DNA from: Methanomassiliicoccales archaeon
GTDB taxonomy: Archaea > Thermoplasmatota > Thermoplasmata > SG8-5
Reading direction: 5' to 3'
NCBI GenBank assembly: GCA_030612505.1
Contig: JAUWNU010000002.1
Span: forward strand, 1-53,787
DNA length: 53,787 bases
Part shown: positions 3,901 to 37,123 of the stretch, one piece after another
Layout of the letters: each line of letters begins with the position of its first letter
Position numbering within the stretch: position 1 is the first letter of the stretch
The notes under the pieces: generated by a model
What the model saw: the letters and a program-made list of their open reading frames with translations, nothing else
Told to the model about the DNA's origin: nothing
The model's database searches: none
Translations under genes and position numbers: made by a program

Positions 3901-4024
3901 TGGCATCGTTCTCATTTTCTCCTGTTCCAAAATGCATTTCTAAATAGGGTGAATCAGCATCATGGGAGTTTTTCACCAGCTCGTTTATTGCAGTAACACC
4001 GTCTCTTATCTGCTGCCTGCCCAA
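953..4024 (-). CDS. Hybrid ATPase/histidine kinase: N-terminal GHKL (MORC/HSP90-like) ATPase, ~400-aa middle region, ~280-aa Lys/Glu coiled coil, H-box and C-terminal HATPase_c
   Basis: N-terminus: INELVKNSHDAD, ADHGSGMS, GAKGVGRLAV (GHKL N, G1 and G2 boxes). C-terminus: H-box MTHEFSQYIIIIRDAI (about nt 1571-1591), N-box ICNILDNMFYWV, SNSGPEI, FSPFFSTK and GRGLGLYLSK. The 3-kb ORF has no frame disruptions. Confidence 0.8.
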   Translation of the reverse strand: MGRQQIRDGVTAINELVKNSHDADSPYLEMHFGTGENENDAIVLADHGSGMSKDDFLDKWLVLGTTNKKNRKTTAKGRPMLGAKGVGRLAVDALGEDLLIISRTKDSHWVISYINWGLFQNPNLLLENVSIPYKHVPFINKSNINNLVEELVGAQLSNLALDGWFTSAKNKSDHKLVDYFRDYQEANRVPFVEAKRMNKYILDDQFDLFNNVFIEINNFKPNYKLLLDLIKEIEWSKDKTGTILYIASLRTNWDLTLPINEQTLSRFSKTLMWLLNNQDIESRLYCKGDDLKPFIEKDLEEIHYEEMYDIKFKGTIAMDDDGVTKFKGQLFMRGVPNKLIEPVNKILKNGLPLMDQFGQKRYSDCGSFEIEVCHVEGREFETNLNKDEWNEIQSLISRRGLEKGGIRVYIDSSRILPYGEPENDFLGIEKRRTLKAGTWIFSHRNSFGRIFLQRDLNYKLEEKTSREGFIENEYYNYLQGTCTDLLMKMARLFLKDGFELRTVSTDERSRIKKQKEALEKKQKKEREKLKKKKKEYEEIIDVFDADELLENLGYFSILNRARSISEENNIIGINSLEKELNNLKEEIVTVAKEPLIPPDSVIKYGGIKFRNKVENYNTEMEKIYKKTLKEINKLLKILDSELKKRLTSNEANIKLSKQRLKDANELLFKASQKLEINNETIENHINNFDEYVDKNKEDILKILEYDNLDEKIEVLKGRISELETVMKRGIDSNEIPSHVESLNKDLQNLQKEVEKHLDKTNMAFNKSLYSIPIDDNLSKETYDENSLIYMEQARRNDELYELANIGLTSDIMTHEFSQYIIIIRDAIRELNEYEMDEYGEHWLKVLDSGIRAVSTRLMALEPLHKSRHSHREPINLNHTLQDIIRMFEPRMKRNKITVIIDVPEDLNVITSLSRFFPVICNILDNMFYWVLLAKEKIIRIEYDNSNLFISNSGPEIRAESEHLLFSPFFSTKENGRGLGLYLSKEILKAIDWDLTLETRKDSQGLGGPKFKISVFKEDLVMNE

Positions 4025-4065
4025 CAGTTCAATAGTTCGGGCTTTTGATGAGAAGGAATGAAGTG

Positions 4066-5217
4066 CTATACAGATACCTCCACAGGTTTTTCTTCAGGTA
4101 TTATTACTTCATTAATTTGGGGCGAATATTCATCTAAAGCTTGTATTACAGTGTTAAAAACATCAACACCTAATCTTATTGGTACGGCATTACCTATCTG
4201 CCTGCCAGACGCCATCAAGCCGCCTTCAAAAATAAAATCATCGGGAAATGTTTGAAATCGAGCTGCGTGTCTAATTGTAATCCCATGATTTTTTGTGGGA
4301 TGAACAAACCGGCCTTTTGATGGATTTATGCAGCCAGTCGTAATTGTTGGACCCGGCTTTCTGGGATCAATCCGCCCATATACATCAAGATGTCCTCTAT
4401 AATTTTCATGACAGGGAAGAGTTCTATTTGATTGCAATCGGCTTCCGCCGTTTTTTGGTGTGCTTTTGAAAACCTCTATTATTCTTTCAGTATGGTTCAT
4501 ATGATTTAAGTTTGGGTCTTTTTTAGAAAGAGGTTTAAACACCACTTTGGCGTTAATCCATGCTGTTTTTTCATCCTTTTTCACCTCTTCTGATTTTGGG
4601 TTGTAATGAGTCGGCTGTGGTGGCCAGTCTAATTTTAATGGAAGGCTAGAAGATATGCCGATAATGAATACTCGCTCACGATTTTGGGGCACGCCATAAT
4701 CTTTTGCATTGAGGAGTGTAGGCCCATAAACACTGTATCCAGATTTTTTAGCCAGTTTTAGAAATTTGTTTAGATAATCAGCATGGCGAGGCCACAAAAG
4801 GCCAGACACGTTCTCTATAACGAAAACCTTTGGCTCTATAATTTTTACAAAATCAAAATATTTGATTATCAGAGTATTTCGAGGATCATCCACGCCTGCA
4901 CCTTTTATTCGGTGTGTAGAAAACCCCTGACATGGTGGGCCACCCATTAACACATCACATTCGCCAGGAAGCATGTCTGCGAGTTTCAGTAATTTATAAG
5001 GGTCAACTTCATTGATGTCATCTTCAATAAGTTCAGGTGGATTTTCCTGGCCATAAATAAAGTTTCTTCGATAAGTTTCGCAGGCATGTCTATCAAATTC
5101 AATGGCGGCCTTTACATGGATACCTACTTCTTTAGCAGCTAGGGTGAAGCCTCCTGCTCCTGCAAACAAATCGATTCCAGTGTAATAGCCATTCTTCACC
5201 TTCTTCCCTCCATTCAA
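4066..5217 (-). CDS. dcm: DNA (cytosine-5)-methyltransferase
   Basis: All canonical m5C-MTase motifs are present in order: DLFAGAGG (I), GGPPCQGFS (IV), ENV (VI), QNRERVF (VIII), RFQTFPDDF (IX) and GNAVP (X). It lies 41 nt upstream of the kinase gene on the same strand. Confidence 0.95.
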   Translation of the reverse strand: MNGGKKVKNGYYTGIDLFAGAGGFTLAAKEVGIHVKAAIEFDRHACETYRRNFIYGQENPPELIEDDINEVDPYKLLKLADMLPGECDVLMGGPPCQGFSTHRIKGAGVDDPRNTLIIKYFDFVKIIEPKVFVIENVSGLLWPRHADYLNKFLKLAKKSGYSVYGPTLLNAKDYGVPQNRERVFIIGISSSLPLKLDWPPQPTHYNPKSEEVKKDEKTAWINAKVVFKPLSKKDPNLNHMNHTERIIEVFKSTPKNGGSRLQSNRTLPCHENYRGHLDVYGRIDPRKPGPTITTGCINPSKGRFVHPTKNHGITIRHAARFQTFPDDFIFEGGLMASGRQIGNAVPIRLGVDVFNTVIQALDEYSPQINEVIIPEEKPVEVSV

Positions 5218-5652
5218 TCTGACATCTGATTATATATTATATTAATCTTATGATGGCCACATCTTTAAACTCCTTTATTATAATTTCCTTACGTTCACTA
5301 CACTATCGCTTCCACAGGCACGTTAGGGATAATAAATCTCAACCTGCCAGTCTTACAATTGCCCTATTTCCCTCTCTCGACAATTCCGAAATCACACAAC
5401 CTTTTTAGATTACTTCACAACCGAATTTTCCCCAATGGCTTTCACTGGCTTCGCAATCTGAGATCTCGATATTCTGGATGTCCTAGAAAGTGACATGAGC
5501 CTCTTTTCTCAAAAAGAAAGCTTGCTCTAAATAGAGTTAAATATCTGATTGAGAATATGAAAAATGGGAAAATTGCGATAAAGAAAATAAATGGTGAGAA
5601 TAATTGACAGATAACTATACCGAATATTACCAAAAAACAGGATTGATAACTA

Positions 5653-6930
5653 ATGAGTGAATTTGATAATTACATCGAATTGTTCAATAACTGGAAAATA
5701 ATTTCAGACACTAAAAAGAAGACATGCTGTAATTTTATCATTGAAACATCACAAGCGAGAGAGCTATCAATGGAAGAAATAGAATTGATTGCAAACGGTC
5801 TCGCCAAAAGTGGTTCTGCCTGGAAATGGCCAAACGATGTCCAACCAATAACAGATGTATGCTCTACTGGAGGGTCTGGATCAATGACAACGTTATTGTG
5901 CCCATATCTTATAGCAACTCAGAAAATTAAGATTCCACAGGTAAGTGTACTAGGGTCTATAGCGGGAGCTATTGACACATTAGGAATCATTCCGGACTAT
6001 TCCTATCAGTTGTCTCATAAGGCTATGTTGAAAGCACTTAGGACCGCTGGAATCGGGCATACATTAAATACTCCCGATATGGCCCCTGCGGATTTATTCC
6101 TTTTTAACCAACGGAAGGCACAAAATGCAGTGAATCTACCTGATTTAGTTATTTCAAGTTTATTAGCAAAAAAAATTAGTTCTGGACTTACAAAGGTTCT
6201 TTTCGATGTCCGAGTAGGTCCAGTTGGAAACTTTGGGACTACTATCGAGGAAGCCGAGCAGAATTGCAGAAAATTGATACAAGTCGGTAGAAATATTGGA
6301 ATTGATTGTACATGTGTTCTAACTAATCATGATACCGCGCCAATTCCTCTTTTTGGGAGATTGGAGAGTCTAAATGTATTATGGTCTGTAGCCAATGGAA
6401 TTGATTTAGATGCCTGGACCTTAAGCCATATTGAAACCAATATTGATATTGCAGCTATTGCATGCGAATCCATAAAAGGGGGTAGTATTAGAGGTTGGAC
6501 CGAGTCAATTCGAAAATCTATTCTAAACGGCGATGTTTTTGATTTAATAAGATATAATTTAAATAGTCAAGGAAGTAGCATAGAAAGTTTGGAAATGCTC
6601 ATAACTAAATATAATAAAACAAAAAAATATGCGATATATTCTCCTTCTGACGGTTATATTAATAGATTTGATTTTGTTAATCTCCGGAACATATTCCAAC
6701 AAGCTTATTTTGAATCCCCCATAATTAGTGGCTTCGATTCACCATTAGGAATAATCCTTAAAGTACGTGAAGGTGTTGAAGTTCATAAAGGTGATTTAAT
6801 AATGGAGTTAAGGGTCAATAATAAAGAACTTTTAAAACATACCGAAGAACTTAAAAAGGTTGTACTCATAGATAAAAAGGCAAAATCCCCCCCTCAAAAA
6901 AAGATTTTCAAGGTGATAAAAAATGGATGA
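5653..6930 (+). CDS. Divergent thymidine/AMP phosphorylase-family (glycosyltransferase family 3 + PYNP_C-like) protein
   Basis: It aligns by eye with the in-window AMP phosphorylase: CSTGGSGSMTTLL vs HSIGGAPGNKITLL; LLAKKISSGLTKVLFDVRVGPVG vs VMAKKKAVGADYFLLDIPTGPG; C-terminal GYINRFD...LKVREGVEVHKGDLIMEL vs GYVTFLD...LKKRGDHIEKDQPMFEI. It lacks the archaeal N-terminal extension. The SxR...GTxD segment is altered (VSVLGSIAGAIDTLG). Confidence 0.8.
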   Translation: MSEFDNYIELFNNWKIISDTKKKTCCNFIIETSQARELSMEEIELIANGLAKSGSAWKWPNDVQPITDVCSTGGSGSMTTLLCPYLIATQKIKIPQVSVLGSIAGAIDTLGIIPDYSYQLSHKAMLKALRTAGIGHTLNTPDMAPADLFLFNQRKAQNAVNLPDLVISSLLAKKISSGLTKVLFDVRVGPVGNFGTTIEEAEQNCRKLIQVGRNIGIDCTCVLTNHDTAPIPLFGRLESLNVLWSVANGIDLDAWTLSHIETNIDIAAIACESIKGGSIRGWTESIRKSILNGDVFDLIRYNLNSQGSSIESLEMLITKYNKTKKYAIYSPSDGYINRFDFVNLRNIFQQAYFESPIISGFDSPLGIILKVREGVEVHKGDLIMELRVNNKELLKHTEELKKVVLIDKKAKSPPQKKIFKVIKNG

Positions 6931-9900
6931 ACCTAATTATTCTTGCTTTCTGCACCCTCGCATTAGATCACAAGATCATCCAGATATTTGTCCAGAGTGC
7001 GGAAAATCATACACCGCTCCATTAGATGAGCCTCCTAAGTCGATAAAGGGAATGAATGTCATTAAATCTCTTGACAGGGGCTTCTATGGCGTGACATATC
7101 TCGTTAAGAATCCTATTACTCAAGGATTATTTACCATGAAAGTGATTCCAAAAAAAACTTATTCGAAAGAAGAAGGTTACAACAAAGATTTCAACCAAGA
7201 GATACAAAATCATAAAAAAGCTTCCGATAAAGAAATGACTGTTCCAAAACTCATTGATGCAGGAGAATGTGAGCTAGAAATTAGTGATTATACAATAAAT
7301 TGTTATTTTATGCAACTAGAATACATAGAAGGAGTCAGTCTTGAAGAATTCAAAAATTCGGGTGTGATTTCAGCCACTAGAATTTCTCAGGTCGCATATG
7401 ATTTATTTGAATTTCTATGGCAATTAGAAAAAGAGATGTTACATCACAACGATCTTCATAGTAGAAATATTGTAATCAAAACAGACTCTGTTGAATTTGG
7501 TAGAATAAATGCATTGGATAAAACTATTAGAACTTATGTAATTGATTTAGGTTCTGTCAGTGATAAGAATAGATCCGGTTGCGAGCATTATCGTGATATT
7601 ACCTGGATTGTACAACATGTCGGAGATATGATTTTCACATATTTGAAAAGAAATGATATTCCAGATAAAGAACTAAGGGTATTATCACGCCTTAATTCTT
7701 TAGTTCAACATTGTTTAGGAGAAGAGTATATAAGGGAAATTACACCAGAGGATTACTGTAATCAGATTAGAGATATCGTTAAACAAGGTGAAAATCCCTG
7801 GGCTCAACCTAAAGAATTAGTGACTCCAGGTGATCATTATAACGCTCAAACAATGCCCACGTATTATGCATCACACCTTTTTTGTGATCCTGAAAATAAA
7901 TGGTTTAACAATTTGATAAAACCTGGTCCGATACTTTTGACAGGGATGAGAGGATGCGGAAAAACTATATTGTTAAAATCGGTTCATTTTTTAGCCAGGG
8001 CGCAAAAATGTGAGGGAGAAGATACAGAAAAGTTCCTAAAGAGATTGGAAAATGAAAAGCATGTTGCATTTTTCGTTTCTTGTTCAGCTTTGTTAACGGA
8101 TCCAAAGAGCAAAAAATTGCACTTTCCTAATCATAAGCTCATTCTTGCTTTTTCATTGGATTTCATAAGGTGTGTTCGTTTTTGTGAATTAGAAAAAATC
8201 GGAGAAATTAATTATAAACAACTCGAACACCTTTGTAATACGCTGAAATTACTTATTCCATGGTTTGAGAAACCCTCTAATATTAACGATACTAATGCTA
8301 TTGAAAGGAGCATTGAAAAAGCAATTTTAAGAGCAAGGAGTATTAAGGATAATGAAGCAAGTGAACTCAATGTTCATAAAGATTTTGATAGGTTAGCTTC
8401 AATTATCCAAAGTTCTATAGATATCTGGAATAACAAACATATATTGTTTTTACTTGATGACGTTTCAGATCGTTACCTTCGTCAAGACAATGTAGATGAA
8501 GTTTTGAGTCAACTATGTCATCAAGCATCCAGATTTTCCTTTAAAATATCAACAGAAACACCTTCTCTAAGATTGAGGACTGGTGGTGGAGAATTTAGTC
8601 GTCTTGATAGGGACTATGAAGAATTTGATTTAGGAAATGAAGTTATGCAGGAATTGAAACATTCAAATTCAACATTTGTAGAGGATATGTTAAGAAAACG
8701 ATTAGATATCACCCCTCAATATAAGGGTTTATCTCCAAAATATATTTTAGATCAACAACCACTAATCGAAGTCGCTAGGAATTTAGTGACGAGATCTGGT
8801 AAACGAAGAGGAAGTTATTGGGGCATCAATGTCCTAGGAACCTTATCTACGGGTGATATTGGGGATTCCATTCTAATGTTTCATCGCATGCTTCAAAAGA
8901 TGACTCCAACAGATAATTCTGTCTCTAGAGAAGATCAAGATTCTGTTATATTCGATTTTTCTGAAAGAAAATTACGAAAACTTGCAATTCAAGACAAATG
9001 GCTTTATGACCATGCTATAGCGTTTGCCCAGGCGAGTCAATTGGAACTTAGAAAAAGTTATTCCCCTGAGCGGGGGAAACAACAAAGGATAAGACAATAT
9101 AACGAGGTATTTTTGAAGGTTGATCCAGAAGGGGCAGATGATATATTCGATAAGATTAATAGATTGGTGGAAATGGGTATATTTATTTATGCGGGAGGGA
9201 CACCTCGTTCTAAAGGACCAAAGCAAAAAGCCTCCTTATATCTCAAGCTAGCTTATCGAAAGATACTGGGAGTGACCAACCTCATGCCAATAAGTTTCAT
9301 GGATAGATTCGAGATATCTGGAGATAACCTTATCAGCTGGCTTAACAATCCAACGGCCAATAAACTTAGAAAGACAGTTGGTGCAAAACAAATTGAAATG
9401 GATAAAGTAACATTGAAAGTAATTGAGGAAACTGACTGGATAGAACAGGATGAAAAAATCATTATAGAACATAAACTAGTAATGGATAAATCAACTCAAT
9501 CTAGATTGTTATTATACAATAAACCCGAAGAAACTGCCTCTATGATCAAATGTAAATTACCTTTCACAATTGAGACAGAAACTCTTCGTTCTCTCAAGAA
9601 AACCGATATAAAAAATAAACACATAATTGGGGCCCTCGGTTTTGAAGATAGAAGCATAGGAACATGGAAGAATATATTGTCTATTGATAAACCAAGTGGG
9701 GTGACCTTCATTGGCTATAAAATAAAAGGATTTAGTGATGAAATATGTGACCTTCTTGAGAAGGAATCTATTCCCTTTGATATCGTTAATTATGACGATA
9801 TATTTTGTTTTAAAGAAAATGAGATAGATAAAGAAAAGATTAAGAATTTTGTAAAAGAACTTCCAACTAATGACATAATATTAGATGTGACTTCTCTGAC

Positions 9901-10579
9901 TAAGCCTTTGATTTTTCTTCTTACTTTTGAAATTCTTAGGCGAAATGGAAGGCTTAATGTAATTCACACTCTCGCGGATGAATATTTACCGAATTCTAAT
10001 GAGGTTTCTGAGGTCTTGAGTCTGTTAGAGGAAGAAGATGCACCCATATTTTTTAAAAAGGCAGACGAATTAATACCTGGCGAATATCCCGAAGAGAGGA
10101 TAACAATCTGGCAGAATAGAGACCCTTGCTCAAATGTCTATTTAATATGCTTCATTTCATTGAAATACTCTAGAGTTCAGAAACTCTTAGAAGAATTGCC
10201 CGTTGATTGTCTTGATATAATTTATCCACTGAGTTTAGATGGAAAAGATTCAGCAAAGAGCAAATTCGCAGAAGAAATAGCAAATACATTTGTTCATGAG
10301 ACGGGGAATATATGGGCTACAGGGTCTAACGATCATGTAGAAGCCTTTCAAAAATTGAAAGAGCTCTATACTAAATATGCGTTAGAAGCAGGAAATAATG
10401 TTGAAATTGGCCTTACAGGTGTAAAAATACACATGGTTGCTGCAGGGATGTTAGCGTCAATTGCAAACATTTCTGGGGTATATTACACACCAGCTAGTTT
10501 TGATCCCGAGAAGTATACCAAGGGCACAGGAAAGACTAATTTTACAACAATAGAAATAAATAAATATAATCCTTATTAA
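6923..10579 (+). CDS. 1218-aa multidomain protein: Zn ribbon, Ser/Thr protein-kinase-like domain, P-loop NTPase (STAND/ORC-like), wHTH-like region, C-terminal Rossmann-like domain
   Basis: CFLHP..CPECG ribbon. Kinase motifs GFYGVTY (Gly loop), FTMKV (Lys), HHNDLHSRN (catalytic loop) and IDLG (DFG-like). Walker A GMRGCGKT at 7943-7966 and Walker B ILFLLDD at 8441-8461. The C-terminal ~330 aa (from about 9620) alternates beta/alpha-like segments and has DVTSLTKP and LTGVKIH loops. There is an 8-nt overlap (ATGGATGA) with the upstream gene. Confidence 0.85.
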   Translation: MDEPNYSCFLHPRIRSQDHPDICPECGKSYTAPLDEPPKSIKGMNVIKSLDRGFYGVTYLVKNPITQGLFTMKVIPKKTYSKEEGYNKDFNQEIQNHKKASDKEMTVPKLIDAGECELEISDYTINCYFMQLEYIEGVSLEEFKNSGVISATRISQVAYDLFEFLWQLEKEMLHHNDLHSRNIVIKTDSVEFGRINALDKTIRTYVIDLGSVSDKNRSGCEHYRDITWIVQHVGDMIFTYLKRNDIPDKELRVLSRLNSLVQHCLGEEYIREITPEDYCNQIRDIVKQGENPWAQPKELVTPGDHYNAQTMPTYYASHLFCDPENKWFNNLIKPGPILLTGMRGCGKTILLKSVHFLARAQKCEGEDTEKFLKRLENEKHVAFFVSCSALLTDPKSKKLHFPNHKLILAFSLDFIRCVRFCELEKIGEINYKQLEHLCNTLKLLIPWFEKPSNINDTNAIERSIEKAILRARSIKDNEASELNVHKDFDRLASIIQSSIDIWNNKHILFLLDDVSDRYLRQDNVDEVLSQLCHQASRFSFKISTETPSLRLRTGGGEFSRLDRDYEEFDLGNEVMQELKHSNSTFVEDMLRKRLDITPQYKGLSPKYILDQQPLIEVARNLVTRSGKRRGSYWGINVLGTLSTGDIGDSILMFHRMLQKMTPTDNSVSREDQDSVIFDFSERKLRKLAIQDKWLYDHAIAFAQASQLELRKSYSPERGKQQRIRQYNEVFLKVDPEGADDIFDKINRLVEMGIFIYAGGTPRSKGPKQKASLYLKLAYRKILGVTNLMPISFMDRFEISGDNLISWLNNPTANKLRKTVGAKQIEMDKVTLKVIEETDWIEQDEKIIIEHKLVMDKSTQSRLLLYNKPEETASMIKCKLPFTIETETLRSLKKTDIKNKHIIGALGFEDRSIGTWKNILSIDKPSGVTFIGYKIKGFSDEICDLLEKESIPFDIVNYDDIFCFKENEIDKEKIKNFVKELPTNDIILDVTSLTKPLIFLLTFEILRRNGRLNVIHTLADEYLPNSNEVSEVLSLLEEEDAPIFFKKADELIPGEYPEERITIWQNRDPCSNVYLICFISLKYSRVQKLLEELPVDCLDIIYPLSLDGKDSAKSKFAEEIANTFVHETGNIWATGSNDHVEAFQKLKELYTKYALEAGNNVEIGLTGVKIHMVAAGMLASIANISGVYYTPASFDPEKYTKGTGKTNFTTIEINKYNPY

Positions 10580-10736
10580 TGTTACTTATGGGTTGCTGAA
10601 AATAAAGCATCAACCAAACTCCCTTGGCAAGTTGTTTTTCTCTGGGCCTGCGATTTGTTCAATTCTTAAACAAACAATTGTAATTATATAAAATAAATGA
10701 AAAGGGGTGGATGAAAGTGTTGTTAATTTAATGCTT

Positions 10737-11150
10737 TCAAGACTCCGACAACTCGATTATCAAATCGAAATCTTCTTTTTCAATTTCGAATAAGTATGCC
10801 TGCATTGACATTTTCATTGCTCGTTGCATATTATCGGAAAGACCATGGCATTCTTTCAATTCTCTGAGTTTAACTGAATTGTTTATTAACTTCACATCGT
10901 TGAGTTTAACTATCAATCGAGAGTCACCCATCTCCATCTTAGAAGCTACTGACGATTTTGCTACGAAAGATGATTGCCATTTTTTAGATGTCAATGAATA
11001 TGTCAAATAGTGCAATACTTTATCTCCTGGCCTAATATTTTTCAACATATTACGATATCTAAGGGTATTTGGGGCATGGAGACCTTTTTCACCTGATATT
11101 TTTGGCTCGATGGAGAAGTCTCCACTTGCAACTTCAATCCAATAGTTCAT
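10737..11150 (-). CDS. EVE/PUA-like domain protein (possible modified-base reader)
   Basis: Pattern MNYWIEV...RYRNMLKNIRPGDKVLHYLT...SVKLRELKE...LFEIEKEDFDLI resembles the EVE-domain consensus (xYWl...RN..a...m.pGD.vlfY...l..lk...l..it.eef..i). Recognised by eye only. Confidence 0.5.
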   Translation of the reverse strand: MNYWIEVASGDFSIEPKISGEKGLHAPNTLRYRNMLKNIRPGDKVLHYLTYSLTSKKWQSSFVAKSSVASKMEMGDSRLIVKLNDVKLINNSVKLRELKECHGLSDNMQRAMKMSMQAYLFEIEKEDFDLIIELSES

Positions 11151-11372: not shown

Positions 11373-11530
11373 GCCGATGGCGACCACCTCCCCGCGCTCA
11401 CGCACGGGGCATCCAAAGTTTGAAAGAAAAAATAAATAACTTGTCACCTCATCCAATTCTAAACAAATTGGATGGTACAACCCCGCCCTTACAGACGGGG
11501 CATGATTGGCTAGGCCAGTGTTAGGGTTGA
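11373..11530 (-). repeat. Structured intergenic repeat, copy A (composite: two GC-clamped hairpins plus central hairpin; minimal loops)
   Basis: The reverse complement reads ccaatcatg-CCCCGTCTGTaagGGCGGGG-ttgtac-CATCCAATTtgtttagAATTGGATG-aggtgaca-T-rich-CCCCGTGCgtgaGCGCGGGG-aggtggtcgccatcggc. The architecture matches copies C, E and F. Confidence 0.8.
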
Positions 11531-11987: not shown

Positions 11988-14900
11988 CTAGGACACCTCA
12001 AACCACACCGTATTCCAATTTGTACCAACAATGCCCACTTCAACTCTGACATAATACCAGCCAGTGGTTGAAATATATGAATAAACACTTTCAGTAGCCC
12101 CAACACTTTCGGAAGAGTCTATCTCTGTTTGACTAGGATTATAGAGGTATAAATCAGGGTCTCCTGCAGCATTTCCTGTCATGTTCGCCCAGAAATATTC
12201 TCCTGCAAACAGAATTATTTGATAATAATCTCTTGAATCAAGGAACGCAGTAATATCCTCAGACCAAGCTTCACCCGGGTTCACTGTTCTTGCTGAAGCG
12301 AAGCCACCACCTGTGTCTGATGTGGCATATGTTCTACTATATACTTCATTTGAATTCGCATATTGACCTCCAGTCTCATTTACTCGAACGATAAAATGAT
12401 ATTGTGTTTGTGGAGTAAGACCACTAATTGTTACGGCTGTGCTTGTTAGAACTGTTAGTTTTCCAATATATGTCGCAGGGCCAGGAGTGAATCCAGAACT
12501 TGTGGACAGGTATATATCGTATGAAGCAAAATCACTGTTTCCATTGTCATATTGAGACCAAGAAATATCAATTTTATCTCCCGCAGAGGTTGGATTATAT
12601 GGTCGATTTAACACGACTGGTGTGGGGTCATTATTTACTAGGATCCATGTATCATTACTTCCAGGCGCTAGTTCATAATTTGAATATGAGTCTATAGCTC
12701 TTGAATAAAACTCATAATACCCCTCTCCACCTGTGGATGCAGAGTTAAAACTCCAAGCCCAAGGTGCTGATGTATCATCTCCATATTTCTGCCATGCCGC
12801 AGAATCCTTACTATACCACAATTCAACGGCATCAATTACAGAAGCGTCGCTGGCAGTGGCCGTTACTGTAAAGGTGATTAAACTCGTTGTGCTGGAAAGA
12901 GAATCAACCGAAGAAAGAGGGTCTGTAAAATCACCAGTCGTAAATTCTACATACCTATCTCCTGCAAGGCTGTTTCCTGCAAGATCCTCAAAGCCAGCAC
13001 CATCTAAATCCGCATAGTAGTTTGTTAATTCATTAAGTGCATTATATGTGCCCCTAAGTTCTTGATTACCGTTCCATGCCCAAATAACCCCAGGTAAATT
13101 TGAGACGGGTGTTCCTTGCTCTAGCATAGGCTCACTAAAATCTATTCTATAATAATCTGCAAACAGTGGAAATCCAGTTGTTTCATCAACTGGGCTAGTA
13201 ATTGGAATCCATGGCAATCCTATATCTGCTATATATGGGCCAGATTCTATGTCTGCAAGAGTGGATGGGATAGGTTCATTTGGTGTTCCCATAGCCCTAG
13301 CATTCCAATAATATGTTCCAGAAATAGGTAATGGACTATCTGGTGTCCAAGGTTCGTCCCATGGATTTGGAGGGAAAGATGAATAAGTCTCTTCTCCCCA
13401 TTTTGTCCAGGAAGTTCCACCATCATCAGACCAGTAAAACCACACCTCGTTCGTGTTAAAATGAGTATATTCTATCTCGGGCAAAGGATCATTGGTCAAT
13501 GTTGTATTTGGGCCAAGTACTTCTGCATATGGCGATACGCTCACTACGTATGGGCCAGCTTCAATGAAACTGGCATCAGTTGGTACTGGTTCATGATTGA
13601 CGTATCCCATTGCTCTTGCGTTCCAATAGTATGTTCCTGAAGATGGTAAATCAGACGAAGGAGTCCATGGATTATCCCAACCGTTCCAGCCCCAGTCATC
13701 TCCCCAATAAGTCCAAGTTGTCCCTCCATTATTCGAATAATAGAATTCAATACTAACTGGCCCCTTACTATATTCATAAGAAAGTTCTGGTCTTGCATCT
13801 AATGTACCATTTGAAACAGGTCCAGTAACATTAGCAATTGGTGCTACACTTATGCGTACTGATATGAAATGTTCTAAAGAATATCCTTTGAAGTCATGGA
13901 CTCTTATGGTTATATTGTAATCCCCATTTCCTTTTAAACTAATATAATCTTGAACAAGCCACCACCACCATGTGTTCTCAGAATCCCAAATACCATTCGA
14001 TAAGATTGGCGCAGGAATTGGGATATCCCAACCAAGACTTAGGATGTCAAATATATTCGTTCCATCTTTTTCAATAGTAATCTCTGCCCATAATGCCATA
14101 TCTGGATTATCTTGACAATCTATTCGAATATTAAAATCGTCAATGTTCACTGTGGCATTTGGCACTGGTTCAAGTACAGAAATTATTGTAGGCGTATTTT
14201 GAATATCGTTAATTTCAAAGGCTAAGATGAAGCCAGGCGGTATCAAACCAGAATCTAGCACACCATCAAGGAAATCTGTTAATGGGTCAGTTACATTAGA
14301 CATTCCTGAAATTTCGTCGGTTAGCCCATTCATTGTTTCAGCAGACGAGAAATCTGATTGATTTTTAAGAAATCCATTAACATTATCAATACTTACAGCA
14401 AAGTCTATGTACATGCCTCTAACTTGTGTTACATTAAAAGAGTAATATGTTGGCCCTTGGCCTGTAGCAAGATAGAATATTGGTATCTGGTAGATGTCAG
14501 TAATACTATTGAATTGAAGCCCATCATATACACAGAAGTCAAGAGGGAAGGCTTGAATTGCAGTAGTTATCACATTAGTTAATGGTTCTCCTGGCGGAAC
14601 ATTTTCCGCTATTGTTTTCAGAGTAGTACCAAAGGTTATAGCATCCAAATTAACATATGCCCAGCCTTGAGAATTCAAATCAACATTACCGTCCTTGAGG
14701 TCTTTGATTGTCACATTCTGGATATCACCAGTAACCTCGGAATATTCATCGACTACCATAATTGGAATATGGGCAAGATCCGCTGAACAAGAGAAGTAAG
14801 TCGCAGGATCATACAAAACGCCTTTAAGGTTCAAATATCTGAATCCAGAAGCCATTCTATCATAGTCTGGAATAATAGCTATTGTGGCATAGTTCCAGGC

Positions 14901-16404: not shown

Positions 16405-16555
16405 CAGGGGCCTTCCCCCGCTCTACATGCCGGTTGCGACCACCTCCTCGCCCTCCACAGCTGAAATCCTTCGGCTTTCAGCCTACTTCACACGAAGCAT
16501 CGTGTTCACAGACGGGGCATGATTGGCTGGGCCGGTGTTGGTTGCGCCTATCGCC
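16405..16555 (-). repeat. Structured intergenic repeat, copy B (single unit with 72-nt three-way-junction insert at 16446-16517)
   Basis: The reverse complement reads ccaatcatg-CCCCGTCTGTGA-ACACGAtgctTCGTGT-gaagtagg-CTGAAAgCCgaaGGaTTTCAG-ctgtgga-GGGCGAGG-aggtggtcgcaaccggcatg. Confidence 0.8.
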
Positions 16556-17857: not shown

Positions 17858-20800
17858 CTAAGTGGCTTCCCCCTCCACAATCCTAATCTCATCCTCAGTA
17901 AGATTGTACAACTCATAAACCAGCCCATCAATCTCCCTATCAGCCGCATCAATCTGCCTCTGCGCCCTGGTTTCAGCGTCCGGCGTGCTGGCCTCTTTAA
18001 TGTCCTTGTGTAGTTTCAGCATCCTCTCAACAAGCTTCACCATTTTGTCATGCCTGGCCACATCATTTTTGTCGTCAAAGTTGATGGTGCGGATTGGGAT
18101 ATTTTTGATGTATTGCTTATTGTATGCATAATACCCACCACTAAATTGACTACTTATAAGTTTAATATACCAATCAAATAAGTTTGAATTCAAAAGCCCT
18201 GTAAGATATAGATATTTTAATGATTTATATTTCTCATTAAGAGTAATTCCATATCCTCCACCGCCTCCACCACCACTTCCAACAAAATAGTAGAAATTTG
18301 TTTCATCAAAATAAAATGAGCCATGGCTGGCAATACTTGGTGTTAGAATTTTCATTTGTTCCATTTCGCTTAAATTTTGTGTTCTTCCAAAAGCATACCA
18401 TTTATCATGCTTCCATTTTCCTCTTTCTCTGGATTCTAGTTTTAAGCGATTTTCATTCAGATATTTCCAGATATTTGGAAATTCTTTTTCCATTTCCTTG
18501 ATAGGAATTAATTGCGCTTTATTTTCTACTAATTTATAAGGAAATAATATTGATTTAGTAATGTTTGAAACATGATATCGTTTAAGATTGACAGAACCTT
18601 TGCATAATGGATGAATTAGTTCTTTCTCTAATGTATAAGTGCTTCCTGTAGCTTCTGACCTATACTTGCCAGTGGACTCCTTTTTCATTATAAATACTGG
18701 GTCCGCTCCAGTAATCAATCCTTGGAAAATTTTACTTGTAACATCTTCTAATTTTATTGGTATGTCGTTTAAGCGTTCAAATAAATCACTTCCTGGACCA
18801 ACAATAAAATTCCATTCATCAGCCCCAGATGGATGATTAATTGAACCCTTTTTTGCATCCTTTTGTAATTTCCAGGAGAGTAAATCATTAACGTCAATAT
18901 AATTGAATTTGTTATTATCTTTTCCTGTAAGAAACAAAAGGCAAGTGTATGTTGTAGCCCCATCAAAAATTTGCAAATCATTGAAGTTGACAATTTCATC
19001 CAGATGCTTGCCCTCACTGATTAATTCTCGAATGGGCTGGCCATACTTTGCCTGGAAGAATTTATGGGGGCAAATGTATCCCATTTTTCCATTCTTGTTG
19101 ATTAGTTGAAGGGCCTTTTCTATGAAAACAACATAGATGTCATAATTTCCCTTGCTGGCGGATTTGTAAACTCTCTTATAATGCTCCACTTCGACAGGGG
19201 CCCACTCTTTCATTGTCTGGATGCGAATATAAGGCGGATTCCCAACCACCGCATCAAACCCTCCGGCCTTCATAATATCGGAAAACTCTTCCTGCCAGCT
19301 GAACGGATTAATCCTGTTAAGTTCATCATCTCGCTCATCATCATTCATGTCCTGAAGATGGTCGATTATGTCGAAATCGATTAGTGAGTTTCCGCACTTT
19401 ATGTTGCTGCCCAGGTCTGGTAATGCTGGCTCCTTGAACCAGGATTTCACATTGGCAATGGATTCTTTACTCTCTCCTTCAAGAGCTTTTAGAAGTAGGT
19501 TTAATTTGGTAACTTCAACTGCCTGGCCGTCAATGTCCACGCCGTGAATATTGTTCAGTAAAATTCGTTTCTTTTCCTGTAATGTTAATTGCCATTCGTC
19601 CTTTCGCTTTTCGAATACCTGGTCCTTGTGCTTTTTTGGGCTATTGGCCATATACCATTCAAGATGCTTGTTCAGCATTTTCTGGTAGGCTACTATCAGG
19701 AATGAGCCGGAACCGCAGGCAGGGTCCAGGATTTTGATTTTAGCCAGTTCGTCCAGATTCTTGCCTTCGCAGAGCTTTACCACTGTGTTTTCTACAATGT
19801 ATTCCACAATGTAGGTTGGCGTGTAATAAACTCCGCCAGCTTTCTTGACCTCTGGCTTTTCCTCGATCTTGGCAGTTTTTCCGCTGGCTGATAATTTGAT
19901 AACCTTGCCTAAGAATTGTTCATAGACCTGGCCTAAAATATCTGCCGGAATAACATCAAACTGATACGGTGAATTTGGATAATACAAGTCCCACAGAATG
20001 CTTGCTAGTACTTTGTCATCAACAATTAGCTTGCGCATTAATCGGTCCGGTTTTGTGCTTCTTGATTTGTCATGTGTGAAATGGAATAATCCAGAATTAT
20101 ATTTTGCATCTGCCAGTTGAAAGACATCTATCATATGTCTGTAAATATCTTTCTTGTTCATCATTATGTCATAAAGCTGATTCTCTGGCTCTGTTTTTCT
20201 GTCCTCACAAATACGCAAAAATAGAATTCTATCAATAAGCCTCTGAACTGCAAAATTCACTTCCTCGGTGGTGAATTCATTATTCTTGGCAATATTTTTA
20301 GCCAGTTCCTCACGCCAACCTTCTATTTCCTTGAGAATTTCTGCGTCAACCTCTGATGTTCCACGCTTCTTTGCCTGGGCATATTTGTCGAATGAACCCT
20401 TGAGAATTGCATCCTTTGTGAATATAGCAACAAGTTCATCCCAGCGTTCTTCCAGTTCATCGAAGGAGATGTAAAGAATTCTGCCCTTTGTCGGGTCATC
20501 AGTTCTAACTGGCCTGAACCTGCAATCATAAACTGAAATATCTTCAAAATTTGTGAGAATGGATAATGGTAATTTTGCGCTCCAGGCATATCTTTTCAAC
20601 TGGAATGCTGGCATCTTATCCGAGCATATGTCAACCGATGGCTTTTTTGCTTCAACGAAGAACTTGGTAGTGCCGCTTAACCTGAAAGAATAATCTGGGG
20701 TTTTTATGCTGCCTTCGACTTCCAATGATTCTTCGGTTACAACATCTCGATACTGGGGCGCATTTCCTTGGGTATTGTCAACGTCCCAATCCAGTGCCTT

Positions 20801-20920
20801 AAAAAGAGGGTCTAAAAATTCAATTCTTACATCTGCCTCCCTGTAGCTGGATGACCTGTACTGCTTGCGGTTGTTTTTGTACCGTTCAACAAGTTTTGAA
20901 ATCTCTTCCGGTGCTGCCAT
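17858..20920 (-). CDS. Type IIG restriction-modification enzyme (fused PD-(D/E)xK nuclease + N6-adenine methyltransferase + target recognition domain)
   Basis: N-terminal TPDYSF...FFVEAKKP (D...ExK). MTase motif I ILDPACGSGSFLI and motif IV GNPPYIR. A long C-terminal specificity region completes 1020 aa. Confidence 0.9.
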   Translation of the reverse strand: MAAPEEISKLVERYKNNRKQYRSSSYREADVRIEFLDPLFKALDWDVDNTQGNAPQYRDVVTEESLEVEGSIKTPDYSFRLSGTTKFFVEAKKPSVDICSDKMPAFQLKRYAWSAKLPLSILTNFEDISVYDCRFRPVRTDDPTKGRILYISFDELEERWDELVAIFTKDAILKGSFDKYAQAKKRGTSEVDAEILKEIEGWREELAKNIAKNNEFTTEEVNFAVQRLIDRILFLRICEDRKTEPENQLYDIMMNKKDIYRHMIDVFQLADAKYNSGLFHFTHDKSRSTKPDRLMRKLIVDDKVLASILWDLYYPNSPYQFDVIPADILGQVYEQFLGKVIKLSASGKTAKIEEKPEVKKAGGVYYTPTYIVEYIVENTVVKLCEGKNLDELAKIKILDPACGSGSFLIVAYQKMLNKHLEWYMANSPKKHKDQVFEKRKDEWQLTLQEKKRILLNNIHGVDIDGQAVEVTKLNLLLKALEGESKESIANVKSWFKEPALPDLGSNIKCGNSLIDFDIIDHLQDMNDDERDDELNRINPFSWQEEFSDIMKAGGFDAVVGNPPYIRIQTMKEWAPVEVEHYKRVYKSASKGNYDIYVVFIEKALQLINKNGKMGYICPHKFFQAKYGQPIRELISEGKHLDEIVNFNDLQIFDGATTYTCLLFLTGKDNNKFNYIDVNDLLSWKLQKDAKKGSINHPSGADEWNFIVGPGSDLFERLNDIPIKLEDVTSKIFQGLITGADPVFIMKKESTGKYRSEATGSTYTLEKELIHPLCKGSVNLKRYHVSNITKSILFPYKLVENKAQLIPIKEMEKEFPNIWKYLNENRLKLESRERGKWKHDKWYAFGRTQNLSEMEQMKILTPSIASHGSFYFDETNFYYFVGSGGGGGGGYGITLNEKYKSLKYLYLTGLLNSNLFDWYIKLISSQFSGGYYAYNKQYIKNIPIRTINFDDKNDVARHDKMVKLVERMLKLHKDIKEASTPDAETRAQRQIDAADREIDGLVYELYNLTEDEIRIVEGEAT

Positions 20921-20975: not shown

Positions 20976-21268
20976 CAATCCAACCAACTCCCGAACACAC
21001 GAGAACAATCCAGCCAACACGACCATGCCCCGTGCGTGAACACGATAATTCGTGTGAAGTAGGCTGAAAGACCGAAGGATTTCAGCTGTGGAGCGCGGGG
21101 TTGTACCTCCTGATTGTCTGAATCAGGAGAGTTGACACGTCTCTTTTTTCTTTCTAAATTCAGAAACCCCGTCTGGATTGAAATGTATTCGTATTTGGAG
21201 GGCGGGGAGGTGCCGCCACAAACGGCCAACCACCGGGAACACCTAAATCAACGGCCAATCCCAAGAAT
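20976..21268 (+). repeat. Structured intergenic repeat, copy C (composite; unit 1 with 73-nt insert at 21028-21100)
   Basis: ...caacacgaccatg-CCCCGTGCGTGA-ACACGAtaatTCGTGT-gaagtagg-CTGAAAG..TTTCAG-ctgtgga-GCGCGGGG-ttgtac-CTCCTGATTgtctgAATCAGGAG-agttgaca-T-rich-CCCCGTCTGGA...GGAGGGCGGGG-aggtgccgcc. Confidence 0.8.
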
Positions 21269-21358: not shown

Positions 21359-21403
21359 CGCAAATTTGACAATTAAATTATAGTAATCTATGTCAAATCT
21401 GCG
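21359..21403. repeat. Palindrome cgcaaaTTTGACA-N19-TGTCAAAtctgcg (copy 1)
   Basis: 13-nt arms (12/13 complementary) with a 19-nt AT-rich spacer. The same arms recur at 26910-26954. Confidence 0.75.
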
Positions 21404-21450: not shown

Positions 21451-21534
21451 ATGCCGATGGCGACCACCTCCCCGCCCTCCGCTTCGCTTTAGACGGGGCA
21501 TGATTGGCCAGGCCGTCTGAGGGTTGCGCCTACC
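21451..21534 (-). repeat. Structured intergenic repeat, copy D (single unit, short loop)
   Basis: The reverse complement reads ggtaggcgcaaccctcagacggcctggccaatcatg-CCCCGTCT-aaagcgaagcgga-GGGCGGGG-aggtggtcgccatcggcat. Confidence 0.75.
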
Positions 21535-23045: not shown

Positions 23046-23311
23046 CAACCAACCGAACACACAAGAACAATCCAGCCAACACGAACATGCCCCGTCTGTG
23101 TGAGCATTGCCTGCAATGCGAGCGAGACTGTTAACCGAAGGTTCAGTCGAAGAGGGCGGGGTATATGTGCCAGATTTGTGGAAGCTGGCAGTGACAAAAG
23201 GCCATTCGGATACCTCGTCCGTTAGGGCGGGGAGGTTCTAGCATATCATCGATACCGTCAACCCAGGGAACATCTCAACCAAGGGCCAGGCCGTCTTATG
23301 GTTACGCCTAC
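23046..23311 (+). repeat. Structured intergenic repeat, copy E (composite, sequence-divergent; unit 1 = 23090-23161, 72 nt)
   Basis: The architecture is the same but the stems differ: CCCCGTCTGTGTGA-GCATTGCctGCAATGC-...-CTGttAACCgaaGGTTCAG-...-GGGCGGGG-tatatgt-GCCAGaTTtgtggAAgCTGGC-agtgaca-...-GGGCGGGG-aggtt. Confidence 0.7.
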
Positions 23312-23511
23312 TTTTTATACTTTCACCAACCCCCAAAGTCTGTTTATATACATCGGTGGGAATAGCAGAAATATGAAGATTGAGAATGAGGAAAATATCG
23401 ATACGCCGCCCATAACGAAATTGCCTCCTGGCCGAGATACACTTTCGGGGGCAGCCGCAGTTGCCAGTTAGCCGAAAGCATTATATATTCTGTGTTACAA
23501 TAGTAATATAA

Positions 23512-23745
23512 GTGGTTACCATGGCAACAACAAAAACATTGAATGTGAGAATAACCGAAAGCCAGCATGAAGAATTGGGCGCGCTTGTAGAGCGAGGAGA
23601 TTATGTGTCCAAGGGAGAGTTCATTCGAGAACTATTGCGCGAGAAGTTCGACGATTTCTCCTCTTATCTGCACGAAAAAGCTGCGGCAGATAGAGATAAG
23701 CATGTTTCTCTAGAGGATTACGGCAAGTCCAGAGGATTAGAATGA
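23512..23745 (+). CDS. Ribbon-helix-helix (CopG-like) antitoxin
   Basis: KTLNVRITESQHEELGALVERGDYVSKGEFIRELLRE. There is a 4-nt ATGA overlap with the downstream toxin gene. Confidence 0.8.
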   Translation: MVTMATTKTLNVRITESQHEELGALVERGDYVSKGEFIRELLREKFDDFSSYLHEKAAADRDKHVSLEDYGKSRGLE

Positions 23746-24002
23746 GCTATTCTGTCTTTCTTCATCCGGATGTCGAGGAATATTTGGATTCGCTTTCCCA
23801 GAGCGAGAGAAAGAGATGCTACATAAGTTTGAAAAAGCTGGCCCTTGACCCATACAAAACCAGGTCTGGTTGTGACATAAAGAAGATGAAAGGTAAAAAG
23901 GTGTATTATCGGTTGCGTGTCGGAAATAACAGGTTTTTATACGTGATATCTGGCAATGAAGTTTTTGTCGAAGAAGCTTTCAAACGCGGAAAAGAATACT
24001 AG
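23742..24002 (+). CDS. relE: RelE/ParE-family type II toxin
   Basis: 86 aa. KKMKGKKVYYRLRVGNNRFLYVISGNEVFVEEAFKRGKEY matches the RelE-type yRlRvG.yRiiY...i.hR..aY pattern. Confidence 0.8.
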   Translation: MSYSVFLHPDVEEYLDSLSQSERKRCYISLKKLALDPYKTRSGCDIKKMKGKKVYYRLRVGNNRFLYVISGNEVFVEEAFKRGKEY

Positions 24003-24115
24003 TCAACAATAGCCAACCACCGGGAACACCTCAATCAACGGCCAATCCATGGAACACCTCAATCAACGGCCAGCCCTGAGAATTACGCCTCCCCAATTAT
24101 CACCCCCGATTCTCA

Positions 24116-27833: not shown

Positions 27834-27920
27834 ATTCAAGATTAATCGAAGCAAGCTTGATTGTTGAATTAGGAGGCATATTCATAAATACAAGTAAACC
27901 AATATTTACAGAGGTTGGCC

Positions 27921-28832
27921 ATGAACATACAAGAGACTTCTGTCAAGATAGAAGATATGACAATCCGCGGAGCCGGACGAATTGCCAGACATGCCTCATT
28001 GGCGCTGAAGGACTATGCTAGCTCTTATTCAGGTAATGACCTGGAAGAATTTCTTCAGGGCCTCGATAAAGCCGCAGTTAGATTGATTTCCACAAGGCCA
28101 ACAGCTATTTCACTCTTCAATGGAGTGCAATTAACTCTAAAAGGTGTTAAAGAGGAATCTGAGTTGGAATCTGCCAGGCAATTACTAATAAAAAATTCTG
28201 ATGCTTTCTGCGAACTGTCAAATTCAGCATATGGCAAGATGGCCAGTTATGGTCCAGACCTGGTTCCGGAAACCGGAAAAAAGGCAATAACAATCTGCAA
28301 TTCCACTGCCGCAATATCTGTCATCAAGGCAGCATACCAGGCAGGAAAAATTACTGGTGTTTATGCATGCGAGACCAGGCCGAAAAAGCAAGGTCTTATT
28401 ACTGTTCGTGAGCTGGCAGAGGCCGGTGTTCCAGTAACCTTAATTGTTGACTCGGCAATGAGATATGTCATGCCCCAGGTTTCTATTGCTTTCATTGGAA
28501 CCGATTCTCTGGAATCCGATGGCAGCGTTATTAATAAAATTGGAACCCAGATACTTGCAGTAACCGCTAGAGACTTCAATGTTCCGGTTTATTCATGCAC
28601 TGAAACCTACAAGTTCTTGCCGCCAAGCAAGGCAGGCCAGCGAGTTCAGATCGAGCTAAGGCCTATAGACGAGATTATTGCTCCCGAGGAACTGCCGGAT
28701 GGCGTGGAGGTCTACAATCCCGTATTTGATAGGGTGCCGCCGGAGCTCATTACCGGCATAATTACTGAGGTCGGGGTAATCAAGCCCTCCCAGGTATCCA
28801 GCATCTCTGAGAGATATCTTGAGGGAATTTAA
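27921..28832 (+). CDS. Ribose-1,5-bisphosphate isomerase (eIF-2B alpha/beta/delta-like family)
   Basis: IRGAGRIARHA...ICNSTAA...ETRPKKQG...VDSA...IGTDS pattern of the e2b2/MtnA family. It is adjacent to the AMP phosphorylase. The ATG at 27921 follows GAGG; the track start at 27915 is TTG. Confidence 0.8.
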   Translation: MNIQETSVKIEDMTIRGAGRIARHASLALKDYASSYSGNDLEEFLQGLDKAAVRLISTRPTAISLFNGVQLTLKGVKEESELESARQLLIKNSDAFCELSNSAYGKMASYGPDLVPETGKKAITICNSTAAISVIKAAYQAGKITGVYACETRPKKQGLITVRELAEAGVPVTLIVDSAMRYVMPQVSIAFIGTDSLESDGSVINKIGTQILAVTARDFNVPVYSCTETYKFLPPSKAGQRVQIELRPIDEIIAPEELPDGVEVYNPVFDRVPPELITGIITEVGVIKPSQVSSISERYLEGI

Positions 28833-28852
28833 ATTTACAGGAGGTATATAAT

Positions 28853-34062: not shown

Positions 34063-34089
34063 ATTAGGCCGCTAGAATCGAAGGCTGAA

Positions 34090-34330: not shown

Positions 34331-34372
34331 AGCCCATGGAACACTGCCCACCAGGGGTCAAGCCCTGGAACC

Positions 34373-36836: not shown

Positions 36837-37123
36837 AAATATGCTTTCTCCACTATACTGTCAGATAGTTGAATGCAACTTGCAACATTAATTAACAGAG
36901 CATTCGACAATGGCATGAAAACGAATGAAAGATAAATCAAATACCATACTACTCGCAACATATTCACAGCAATCGTTGGATTCGATAGTTAAATCAAATT
37001 AGATATAGAATCCGACCTGATTGAGCAATTTCCCAATAAACATAATCAAAAAATTCCGTAATCTCGTAACCAGCATTCTAAAGACAAAGAGATTATGGTG
37101 AGAAAACATTTGGGGCTTTGAAA

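Follow-up and report, generated by a model that had tools for sequence, protein, structure and literature searches.

A nested palindromic repeat of archaeal intergenic DNA that resembles bacterial REP and BIME elements

The DNA analysed here, a stretch of 53,787 nucleotides taken from a metagenome assembly and referred to throughout as the window, derives from an uncultured Thermoplasmatota archaeon of cold-seep sediment. Cold-seep metagenome runs contain DNA near-identical to the window, which carries genes for AMP phosphorylase and ribose-1,5-bisphosphate isomerase (27915-30382), Lrp/AsnC regulators and further archaeal genes. The closest named relatives of the AMP phosphorylase come from MAGs designated "Thermoplasmata / Thermoplasmatota archaeon" (~75% identity), as compared with ~55% identity to Methanomassiliicoccales. 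No tRNA genes are present in the window. Since the G+C content of the window is 32-47%, a set of G+C-rich repeats is conspicuous in the intergenic spacers between 11.3 and 34.3 kb. These repeats are built around a small palindrome, the host hairpin, which occurs ten times in the window and which in five instances encloses a further pair of hairpins, giving a folded unit of 72-73 nt that we call the module; all five modules and all of the host hairpins are intergenic. Contigs of this lineage often break at these repeats.

We built a covariance model (R1) from the four typical copies of the module, with the structure written out, and scored every position of the 53.8 kb on both strands. The model returned exactly five full-length matches in the window, with lengths of 72, 73, 72, 72 and 72 nt, and these are the same five units, at the same positions and on the same strands, that an earlier sequence-only reading of this DNA had listed. 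Typical copies score 99.7-103.2 bits with E values of about 1e-26. In the reference copy, D (34099-34170, plus strand, 72 nt, 102.6 bits), the outer stem (34099-34106 paired with 34163-34170) is followed by GTGA (34107-34110), hairpin 1 (34111-34126, with the G-C variant of the closing pair), the linker GAAGTAG (34127-34133), hairpin 2 (34134-34156) and the linker TGTGGA (34157-34162). Copy E (34238-34309, plus strand, 72 nt, 103.2 bits) follows D at a distance of 139 nt, in equal orientation, as the second hairpin of the double composite that the two share. Copy A (16446-16517, minus strand, 72 nt, 99.7 bits) lies in a single-hairpin composite flanked by two co-directional minus-strand genes and has one C·A mismatch in its outer stem. 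Copy B (21028-21100, plus strand, 100 bits) is 73 nt long owing to one extra A in hairpin 2, and takes the first hairpin position of a double composite; its outer stem is the variant CCCCGTGC/GCGCGGGG, in which a C-G pair has been replaced in compensatory fashion by G-C. The remaining match, copy C (23090-23161, plus strand, 72 nt, 44.1 bits, E 5e-10), keeps the architecture of the typical copies. It departs from them by compensatory changes to three pairs of hairpin 1 and to one basal pair of hairpin 2, by a first junction that is longer by 2 nt, and by the linkers GAGCGAGA and TCGAAGA. The module therefore exists as two subfamilies, the typical one and a divergent C type, that share an architecture and differ in sequence.

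Folding of the five copies bore out the proposal that the unit is a discrete three-way junction of constant length. In four copies the shared junction is the minimum-energy RNA fold (RNAfold), the exception being copy A, which departs from it around hairpin 1. In the junction, an outer stem of 8 bp leads through GUGA to a hairpin of 6 bp with four loop nucleotides; a linker of 8 nt then precedes a second, imperfect hairpin, which is closed by GAA or AAA, and a linker of 6-7 nt completes the unit. The z-scores of these four folds are -5.1, -4.3, -4.6 and -2.65, and that of copy A is -1.5. Hairpin 2 is an imperfect palindrome of 23-24 nt with a purine-purine mismatch (G·A, A·G or G·G); the mismatch is as previously described, while the stem is one pair longer, gaining a further G-C pair (A-U in the divergent copy), and copy B has its extra A here. 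The divergent copy, termed copy E in the earlier account and copy C here, does show the reported covariation in hairpin 1, which folds as 6 bp closed by a CCUG loop. With DNA parameters, hairpins 1 and 2 form on both strands in all five copies (z -1.6 to -4.6), whereas the outer stem of copy A stays open on both strands and that of the bottom strand forms only in part. The top strand folds better than the bottom strand by 10-12 kcal/mol, and the T·G wobbles are confined to one strand, the sole C·A being that of copy A.

The stems covary, as had been claimed from inspection of the sequence. In a model-guided alignment of the five sequences, 99.1% of cells are base paired; sliding the partners lowers this to about 44%, with values of 36-46% over shifts of 1-3 columns. 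Six pairs have changed on both sides, as against 1.7 ± 1.0 in shuffles, and none of 500 shuffles reached the observed values. Hairpin 1 accounts for four of these compensatory pairs; the base of hairpin 2 and the outer stem contribute one each. Because they come from only five sequences in an alignment that was fitted to the model, these pair statistics are supportive and fall short of conclusive. The covariation is reinforced by a metagenome copy in which a C-G pair of the outer stem is replaced by T-A (CCCTGTGC GTAA GCGCAGGG).

The outer stem is an independent repeat, since it also occurs closed by GTGA, by GTAA, or by a 13-nt or 25-nt loop; the suggestion that the module behaves as an optional insert thus held up. 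The host consensus is (ATG)CCCCGYSY - loop - RSGCGGGG, an 8-bp stem with a T·G wobble that is fixed in this lineage. This wobble occupies stem position 6 and keeps to one strand throughout the intact host hairpins of the window; distant relatives have a C-G pair there. The ten host hairpins comprise five with the module, two with a tetraloop, two with other inserts and one that is degenerate, and the covariance-model search that found the modules placed the five "empty" outer stems at 15-20 bits. Those with tetraloops are CCCCGTGC GTGA GCGCGGGG (11390-11409, minus strand, 19.7 bits) and CCCCGTCT GTAA GGGCGGGG (11481-11500, minus strand, 17.7 bits). A third (21470-21498, minus strand, 16 bits) has the 13-nt loop AAAGCGAAGCGGA, which contains a GCGAAGC mini-hairpin and has a similar counterpart in the relative L129; a fourth (21167-21207, plus strand) has a 25-nt AT-rich hairpin insert, GGATTGAAATGTATTCGTATTTGGA, which is distinct from the module and of a type that recurs in contigs of the metagenome runs X1 and X3. 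The degenerate hairpin (23213-23232, plus strand, 15.1 bits) occupies the second position of the composite that contains copy C. In relatives that encode a 65-67% identical orthologue of a neighbouring 268-aa protein, the host hairpin is present with loops of 4 or 13 nt and without the module, which makes the host hairpin older and more widespread than its insert. In contigs of the source metagenome (run X1), the halves of the stem are joined by GTGA, GTAA and at least six other short fillings; the sides of these joints, at most 38 nt long and within repeated sequence, are too short to prove orthology.

Host hairpins, most often closed by GTGA or GTAA, are dispersed over intergenic spacers and are combined with short motifs into composites of 150-320 nt. 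The motif set consists of a left flank (..GGCCAATCATG), an optional linker (ending ..TTTGGATG), a second host hairpin and a right flank (AGGTGGTCGCCAYCGGCATG..). The whole composite that holds copies D and E is about 314 nt long (34063-34376, plus strand), and its linker (34171-34237, plus strand) is made up of TTGTACC, a variable hairpin (ATCCAATT..AATTGGAT), GAGTTGACA, a T-rich tract and CTTTCAAACTTTGGATG. Equivalent linkers lie at 11410-11480 (minus strand) and 21101-21166 (plus strand), and the linker hairpin covaries among copies (TCCTGATT/AATCAGGA in the composite of copy B).

Within the module, the part inside the host stem can be regarded as a unit of its own. This inner cassette of 52-56 nt, composed of two hairpins and purine-rich linkers, sits in the apical loop of the host stem, always after GT(G)A and, in all five copies, in the same orientation relative to the asymmetric stem. 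The module may occupy the first host hairpin of a composite (B and D), the second (E) or the only one (A), and other composites have none. Typical modules are 0.89-0.92 identical to one another, as compared with 0.42-0.76 for their 40-nt flanks; conversely, the 5' flanks of copies B and C are 0.90 identical and their modules just 0.63. The loops had been said to vary freely, and in the typical copies variable columns are indeed confined to loops and the mismatch: all six singly variable interior columns are among the 10 that belong to a loop or the mismatch (hypergeometric 9e-6 for classes drawn up post hoc). The sole paired change within the typical module is compensatory, and the unpaired junction strands are invariant among typical copies. 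Where contigs from four other metagenomes depart from copy A, they do so at these same loop and mismatch positions, and contigs from X1 deviate from copy D in the pair that closes hairpin 1 (on both sides) and in the mismatch.

Read depth in the source metagenome suggests a copy number in the tens for the module. In X1, depth over the repeat and module is 225-840, as compared with about 15 for unique flanks (15-55x). The divergent subfamily reaches a depth of 70-120, against about 15-18 for unique sequence (4-7x), and is therefore also multi-copy; it is found as well in X2, X3 and X5. At least nine runs, from eight studies of cold seeps, marine settings or sediments, contain 31-mers of the module. 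Searches of wider scope gave little: the module pattern GAAGTAGGCTGN{10,20}CAGCTGTGGA had no match in 185,579 reference genomes (one per species), its five matches in JGI metagenome contigs were all unrelated coding sequence, and nothing was found in viral contigs, plasmids or phages. A genome scan with the right flank of the host, GSGCGGGGAGGTGGTCGCC, returned single chance matches in high-GC bacteria, with no hairpin context among the matches listed, and is uninformative on archaeal relatives. Further copies sought through spurious ORFs called over the repeat yielded no candidates, and exact-protein look-ups with the neighbouring genes returned the same organism only.

Comparison of orthologous sites, which the sequence-only reading had proposed for copies with and without the insert, revealed turnover at the level of whole composites. 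In the relative L010, whose neighbouring protein is 94% identical, the same two genes lie ~105 nt apart and the entire 314-nt composite of copies D and E is absent; it is likewise absent in relatives at 81-90% identity. This shows that composites turn over rapidly between relatives, and gain or loss of the module alone is not thereby demonstrated. Some contigs of close relatives terminate at the repeat (L007 and L126), and among the relatives' contigs, in which either the whole composite is missing or the contig ends at the repeat, no filled and empty pair differing by the module only was found at one orthologous site.

Amongst the systems we compared, bacterial mosaic repeats of the REP/BIME type match this anatomy most closely. 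REP, BIME and REPIN systems are the textbook case of long-lived, domesticated bacterial mobile DNA. The archaeal repeats have in common with them short, extragenic, imperfect palindromes in tens of copies, with conserved stems, free loops and a central stem mismatch; mosaic intergenic composites with other motifs; placement inside the loop of a small GC-rich palindrome of which there are empty versions too; and restriction to one lineage with turnover between close relatives. In bacteria, REPs of the GTAG type are inserted in the loops of small GC-rich palindromes of which empty copies are abundant, and the GTAG-23 elements of Thermomicrobium roseum lie inside CCGSSCC(n3-4)GGSSCGG (PMC3733652). 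REPs of the GTAG superfamily are imperfect palindromes of about 20-40 nt with a conserved unpaired head, GTAG or CGTC; they are frequently arranged as inverted dimers, head-to-head or tail-to-tail, and a single-copy RAYT gene is associated with them. The likeness to REPs noted previously, a GTAG ahead of an imperfect palindrome, applies to four of the five copies, in which GTAG lies immediately 5' of hairpin 2 with its central mismatch; the divergent copy has CGAG there. Inverted dimers, a further point of comparison, are lacking: copies D and E are direct repeats 139 nt apart, and the window contains no inverted pair of modules. Other differences are the archaeal host and the arrangement of two unlike hairpins in tandem on one strand, which together with the host stem form a three-way junction. 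Among the ~40 window ORFs scanned we found no RAYT, Y1 or any other transposase. In a survey of Y1 transposases, REP-associated (RAYT-type) subclasses were reported from bacteria only and not from Archaea, in which the IS200-type subclass 1.1 was reported (PMC6006769).

The module also shares features with IS200/IS605 elements and with PATEs, which are non-autonomous IS200/IS605 derivatives described in haloarchaea and cyanobacteria (PMC3119063). It has no TIRs of its own and no clear target duplication (at most a 2-nt GA ambiguity at its ends), it has hairpins near both ends on one strand, it is inserted 3' of the fixed word GTGA in all five copies and in one orientation, its right end (CTGTGGA) resembles the left target (CTGTGA), and its folding is that of one strand with G·T pairs. 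The ends of IS200/IS605 elements carry hairpins that are similar to each other. Here the hairpins are dissimilar, the 52-56 nt of the cassette are far below the size of known PATEs, the target is the loop of another hairpin, and no tnpA or tnpB gene was found near the modules among the window ORFs scanned. A palindromic repeat unit as a specific insertion target recalls IS1397, ISKpn1, ISPa11 and ISPpu10, insertion sequences that target REP or BIME palindromes. ISPpu9 is documented as inserted in REPs (PMC8450116). These are full-length insertion sequences with transposase genes, unlike the 56-nt non-coding cassette. The module does not fit the pattern of a MITE, as its ends (ACACGA... and ...CTGTGGA) are not inverted repeats and the inverted repeat that flanks it is the host stem, which exists without the insert.

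Matches to known RNAs were also sought. The idea that the junction forms a kink-turn did not survive closer comparison. A kink-turn consists of a Watson-Crick C stem, a 3-nt bulge and tandem sheared G·A and A·G pairs. The archaeal host, the three-way junction and the GA dinucleotides, which are conserved in all five copies on both strands beside a G-C-rich stem, are in keeping with a k-turn or k-junction, whereas the bulge measures 2 nt in the typical copies and 4 nt in copy C, and the nucleotide that follows the GA already pairs inside hairpin 1. The eighth stem pair covaries (U·G or C-G), and hence its base cannot be counted towards the bulge. Rfam 15 gave no match in the window at gathering score, and permissive filters (E up to 10) gave only chance-level matches (E at least 1.6, 10-16 bits), none containing a k-turn. 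A 13-bit match to a C/D-box snoRNA sits in a linker, outside the module, and is not conserved in copy B. By eye, the junction strands do not fit the hammerhead motifs CUGANGA, GAAA and NUH, there is neither an R''/R' core nor an integrase as for an integron attC site, domain V of group II introns lacks a counterpart to its bulge or AGC triad, and a ribosome-binding site with ATG in the right flank is discounted by the stop that immediately follows the ATG in copy A.

Our best explanation of the 72-nt unit is that it consists of two nested layers, a host palindrome and an inner cassette, of an intergenic mosaic repeat family. The analyses above demonstrate the nesting, the modular independence of the two layers, the conservation of structure, the strand asymmetry, the copy number and the restriction to a single lineage. 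Taken as a whole, it appears to be a lineage-restricted, archaeal variant of the nested palindromic repeats of REP/BIME type, and it has probably spread by strand-specific insertion into loops. Given its REP-like anatomy, fixed orientation, GTGA word, and lack of TIRs and of a clear target duplication, we favour the view that the cassette is a non-autonomous mini-element which a hairpin-reading enzyme, acting in trans, copies into hairpin loops; to this view we assign a little less than an even chance. What we infer here is that the cassette moves, that insertions and not losses produced the pattern, and that an enzyme of this kind is at work. Copying into the hairpin loops of host units would be strand-specific and would depend on single-strand folding, and the likeliest machinery would be a hairpin-recognising enzyme of the HUH/Y1 "peel-and-paste" type or some other loop-targeting recombinase. 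The stems, linkers and purine-purine mismatch would be kept because that machinery reads them, leaving the bases of the loops free. Transcribed copies would fold into a stable three-way junction, with possible incidental effects on 3' ends or on the stability of the RNA. To our knowledge no mobile element as small as 52-56 nt has been described. Loop-confined variation is explained no less well by purifying selection after insertion, through a function for the host, than by selection for transposability.

A serious alternative, which we consider less probable than a mini-element, is that the module is a functional RNA domain. Composites would be transcribed as 3' UTRs, operon spacers or small RNAs, with the junction as an optional peripheral domain that replaces a GNRA tetraloop; selection at the level of the host would maintain it, for instance as a protein-binding platform, a stabiliser or a terminator element. 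Peripheral domains replace GNRA tetraloops in many structured RNAs, and the host stem is closed by loops of GNRA type (GUGA and GUAA). The G·U wobbles on one strand and the better folding of the top strand speak for an RNA, as do two subfamilies with one architecture and differing sequences, and changes that are compensatory or restricted to loops, together with invariant junction strands, form the pattern of a selected tertiary fold or protein-binding site. ORF maps place the folding strand mostly in sense, downstream of or between co-directional genes (S1, copy A, the 21470 hairpin and copies D and E), the double composite has a hairpin followed by a T-rich tract in the manner of a terminator, and a CAUGCC/GGCAUG helix is able to enclose the whole composite. 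Against this, none of the RNA runs searched for the sequence contains it, and Rfam offers no matching family even with the cutoff relaxed to E 10. Copy B runs antisense to the genes on either side, and copy C lies in a divergent spacer, upstream of a TATA-like box. Mosaic presence, tens of copies and absence at the orthologous sites of close relatives are marks of selfish repeats, and DNA parameters yield the same fold as RNA parameters. GAA loops closed by C-G, and the GCGAAGC mini-hairpin, are classic motifs of stable hairpins in single-stranded DNA.

Dedicated mobility might be dispensed with altogether if the 72-nt form were an old allele of the host hairpin, from which loops were deleted by replication slippage across the hairpins at the 2-nt GA microhomology, while gene conversion or template switching among the dispersed composites moved apical parts from one context to another; the long form could then be ancestral and the tetraloop forms derived by deletion. 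The ends of the insert are ambiguous by 2 nt (GT/GA...TG/GA; joint 34247-34300), which fits microhomology deletion, and the three longer fillings (the module and the 13-nt and 25-nt loops) all end in GGA, suggesting an ancestral ...GGA-GGGCGGGG. The family is a mosaic of short shared motifs, as frequent recombination predicts, and no transposase was found in the scan of window ORFs. Yet the module occurs in four combinations of flanks whose shared homology is limited to the two 8-nt halves of the stem, one of them extended by ATG (8-11 nt). We estimate homology of 8-11 nt to be very short for homologous gene conversion. The narrow lineage of the module, as opposed to the older host hairpin, points to gain and spread over ancestral presence, and the very low divergence of typical modules next to diverged flanks would demand continuing homogenisation. 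We regard this account as improbable, more so than a functional RNA. Chance similarity, or an artefact of metagenome assembly, in which repeats can be mis-joined, we hold to be scarcely credible: the model gives four copies E values near 1e-26 and the remaining one 5e-10, the locus of copy A recurs in an independent ENA assembly (L125, 99.7 bits, equal to copy A) and in a Logan contig, and module words are present in at least nine runs from eight studies.

The nested repeat resembles bacterial REP and BIME elements and is one for which there is no known archaeal counterpart or transposase. It is a concrete and delimited substrate, comprising a covariance model, two subfamilies and a host hairpin in empty and filled states, with which to seek a REP-type system in archaeal MAGs. 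The finding bears on how intergenic "structured RNAs" in metagenomes are read, because compensatory changes alone cannot separate RNA function from the recognition of single-stranded DNA, and it bears on assembly, many contigs of the lineage being broken at these repeats. A bolder claim, which we think doubtful, is that the cassette is either the smallest known strand-specific mobile element (~56 nt, non-coding, with two hairpins), homing into GNRA-type loops of a resident repeat and driven by an unrecognised archaeal counterpart of REP/RAYT systems or by a new loop-targeting recombinase, or a new class of archaeal structured RNA domain spread on a repeat scaffold. A cognate enzyme or a discrete RNA, if found, would sharply raise the significance of this repeat family.

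The gene content of the window places its repeats within a defence or variable island, the segments of which span 953-11150, 17858-20920, 23512-24002 and 37303-38238. One gene of the island encodes a protein of 1023 aa that has two HATPase domains, and another (4066-5217) a C5 cytosine methylase. Further products are a kinase/ORC-CDC6-like STAND protein (6923-10579), a protein with an EVE domain (10737-11150), a type IIG restriction-modification enzyme of Eco57I/MmeI-like type (17858-20920) and a Fic/Doc protein (37303-38238). Judged by position and size, the two small genes at 23512-24002 resemble an antitoxin/toxin pair; a Pfam scan of the second ORF of this pair returned zero matches.

A 90-nt segment is duplicated in the window (37123-37212 vs 38276-38365, 89% identity), one copy sitting upstream of the Fic gene, the second where the radical-SAM DNA-repair ORF begins. 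Both a small palindrome and a TTTATATA box lie within this segment, and a related 42-nt piece (23313-23354) directly follows composite C, the mosaic repeat element that holds a divergent module copy. The duplicated segment has the appearance of a shared promoter or leader cassette. The radical-SAM 'DNA modification/repair' protein, which matches an NCBIfam model labelled 'rSAM_link_UDG', is followed by a DUF4130 protein (together 38259-40147), and genes for a DNA alkylation repair protein (43448-44131) and a DinG/Rad3 helicase (44134-46164) lie nearby.

Elsewhere in the window, adjacent genes encode AMP phosphorylase and ribose-1,5-bisphosphate isomerase (27915-30382), a pair that constitutes the archaeal AMP salvage pathway; another, divergent pyrimidine-nucleoside-phosphorylase-like gene (5653-6930) lies within the defence island. 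The 5' end of a CDP-alcohol phosphatidyltransferase ORF carries three 30-nt tandem repeats (30816-30921), which specify a repeated acidic, proline-rich N-terminal stretch.

Repeats were also observed in relatives. The contig L129, on which the orthologous neighbour protein shows 67% identity, carries a repeat family of its own that is based on the same GGGCGGGG hairpin (12920-13260 and 18500-18590), with T(G)CATGGCT(G)AGCAATCTCATT as the right flank and a perfect 10-bp hairpin, GGCCTTTCGC..GCGAAAGGCC, close by. A separate palindromic family, CGCAAATTTGACA...TGTCAAAT(C/T)TGCG, occurs at 21359-21403 of the window, and a related copy is found in L010, a relative with a 94% identical neighbouring protein, at 1150-1195, in the spacer where the window carries composite D/E (the element with two module copies). 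Finally, the motif GGAACACCTCAATCAACGGCCAATCC is arranged in tandem with a 28-nt period at 24012-24076, and its dispersed copies adjoin composites (21225-21261 and 23256-23292); this motif belongs to the same mosaic as the composites.
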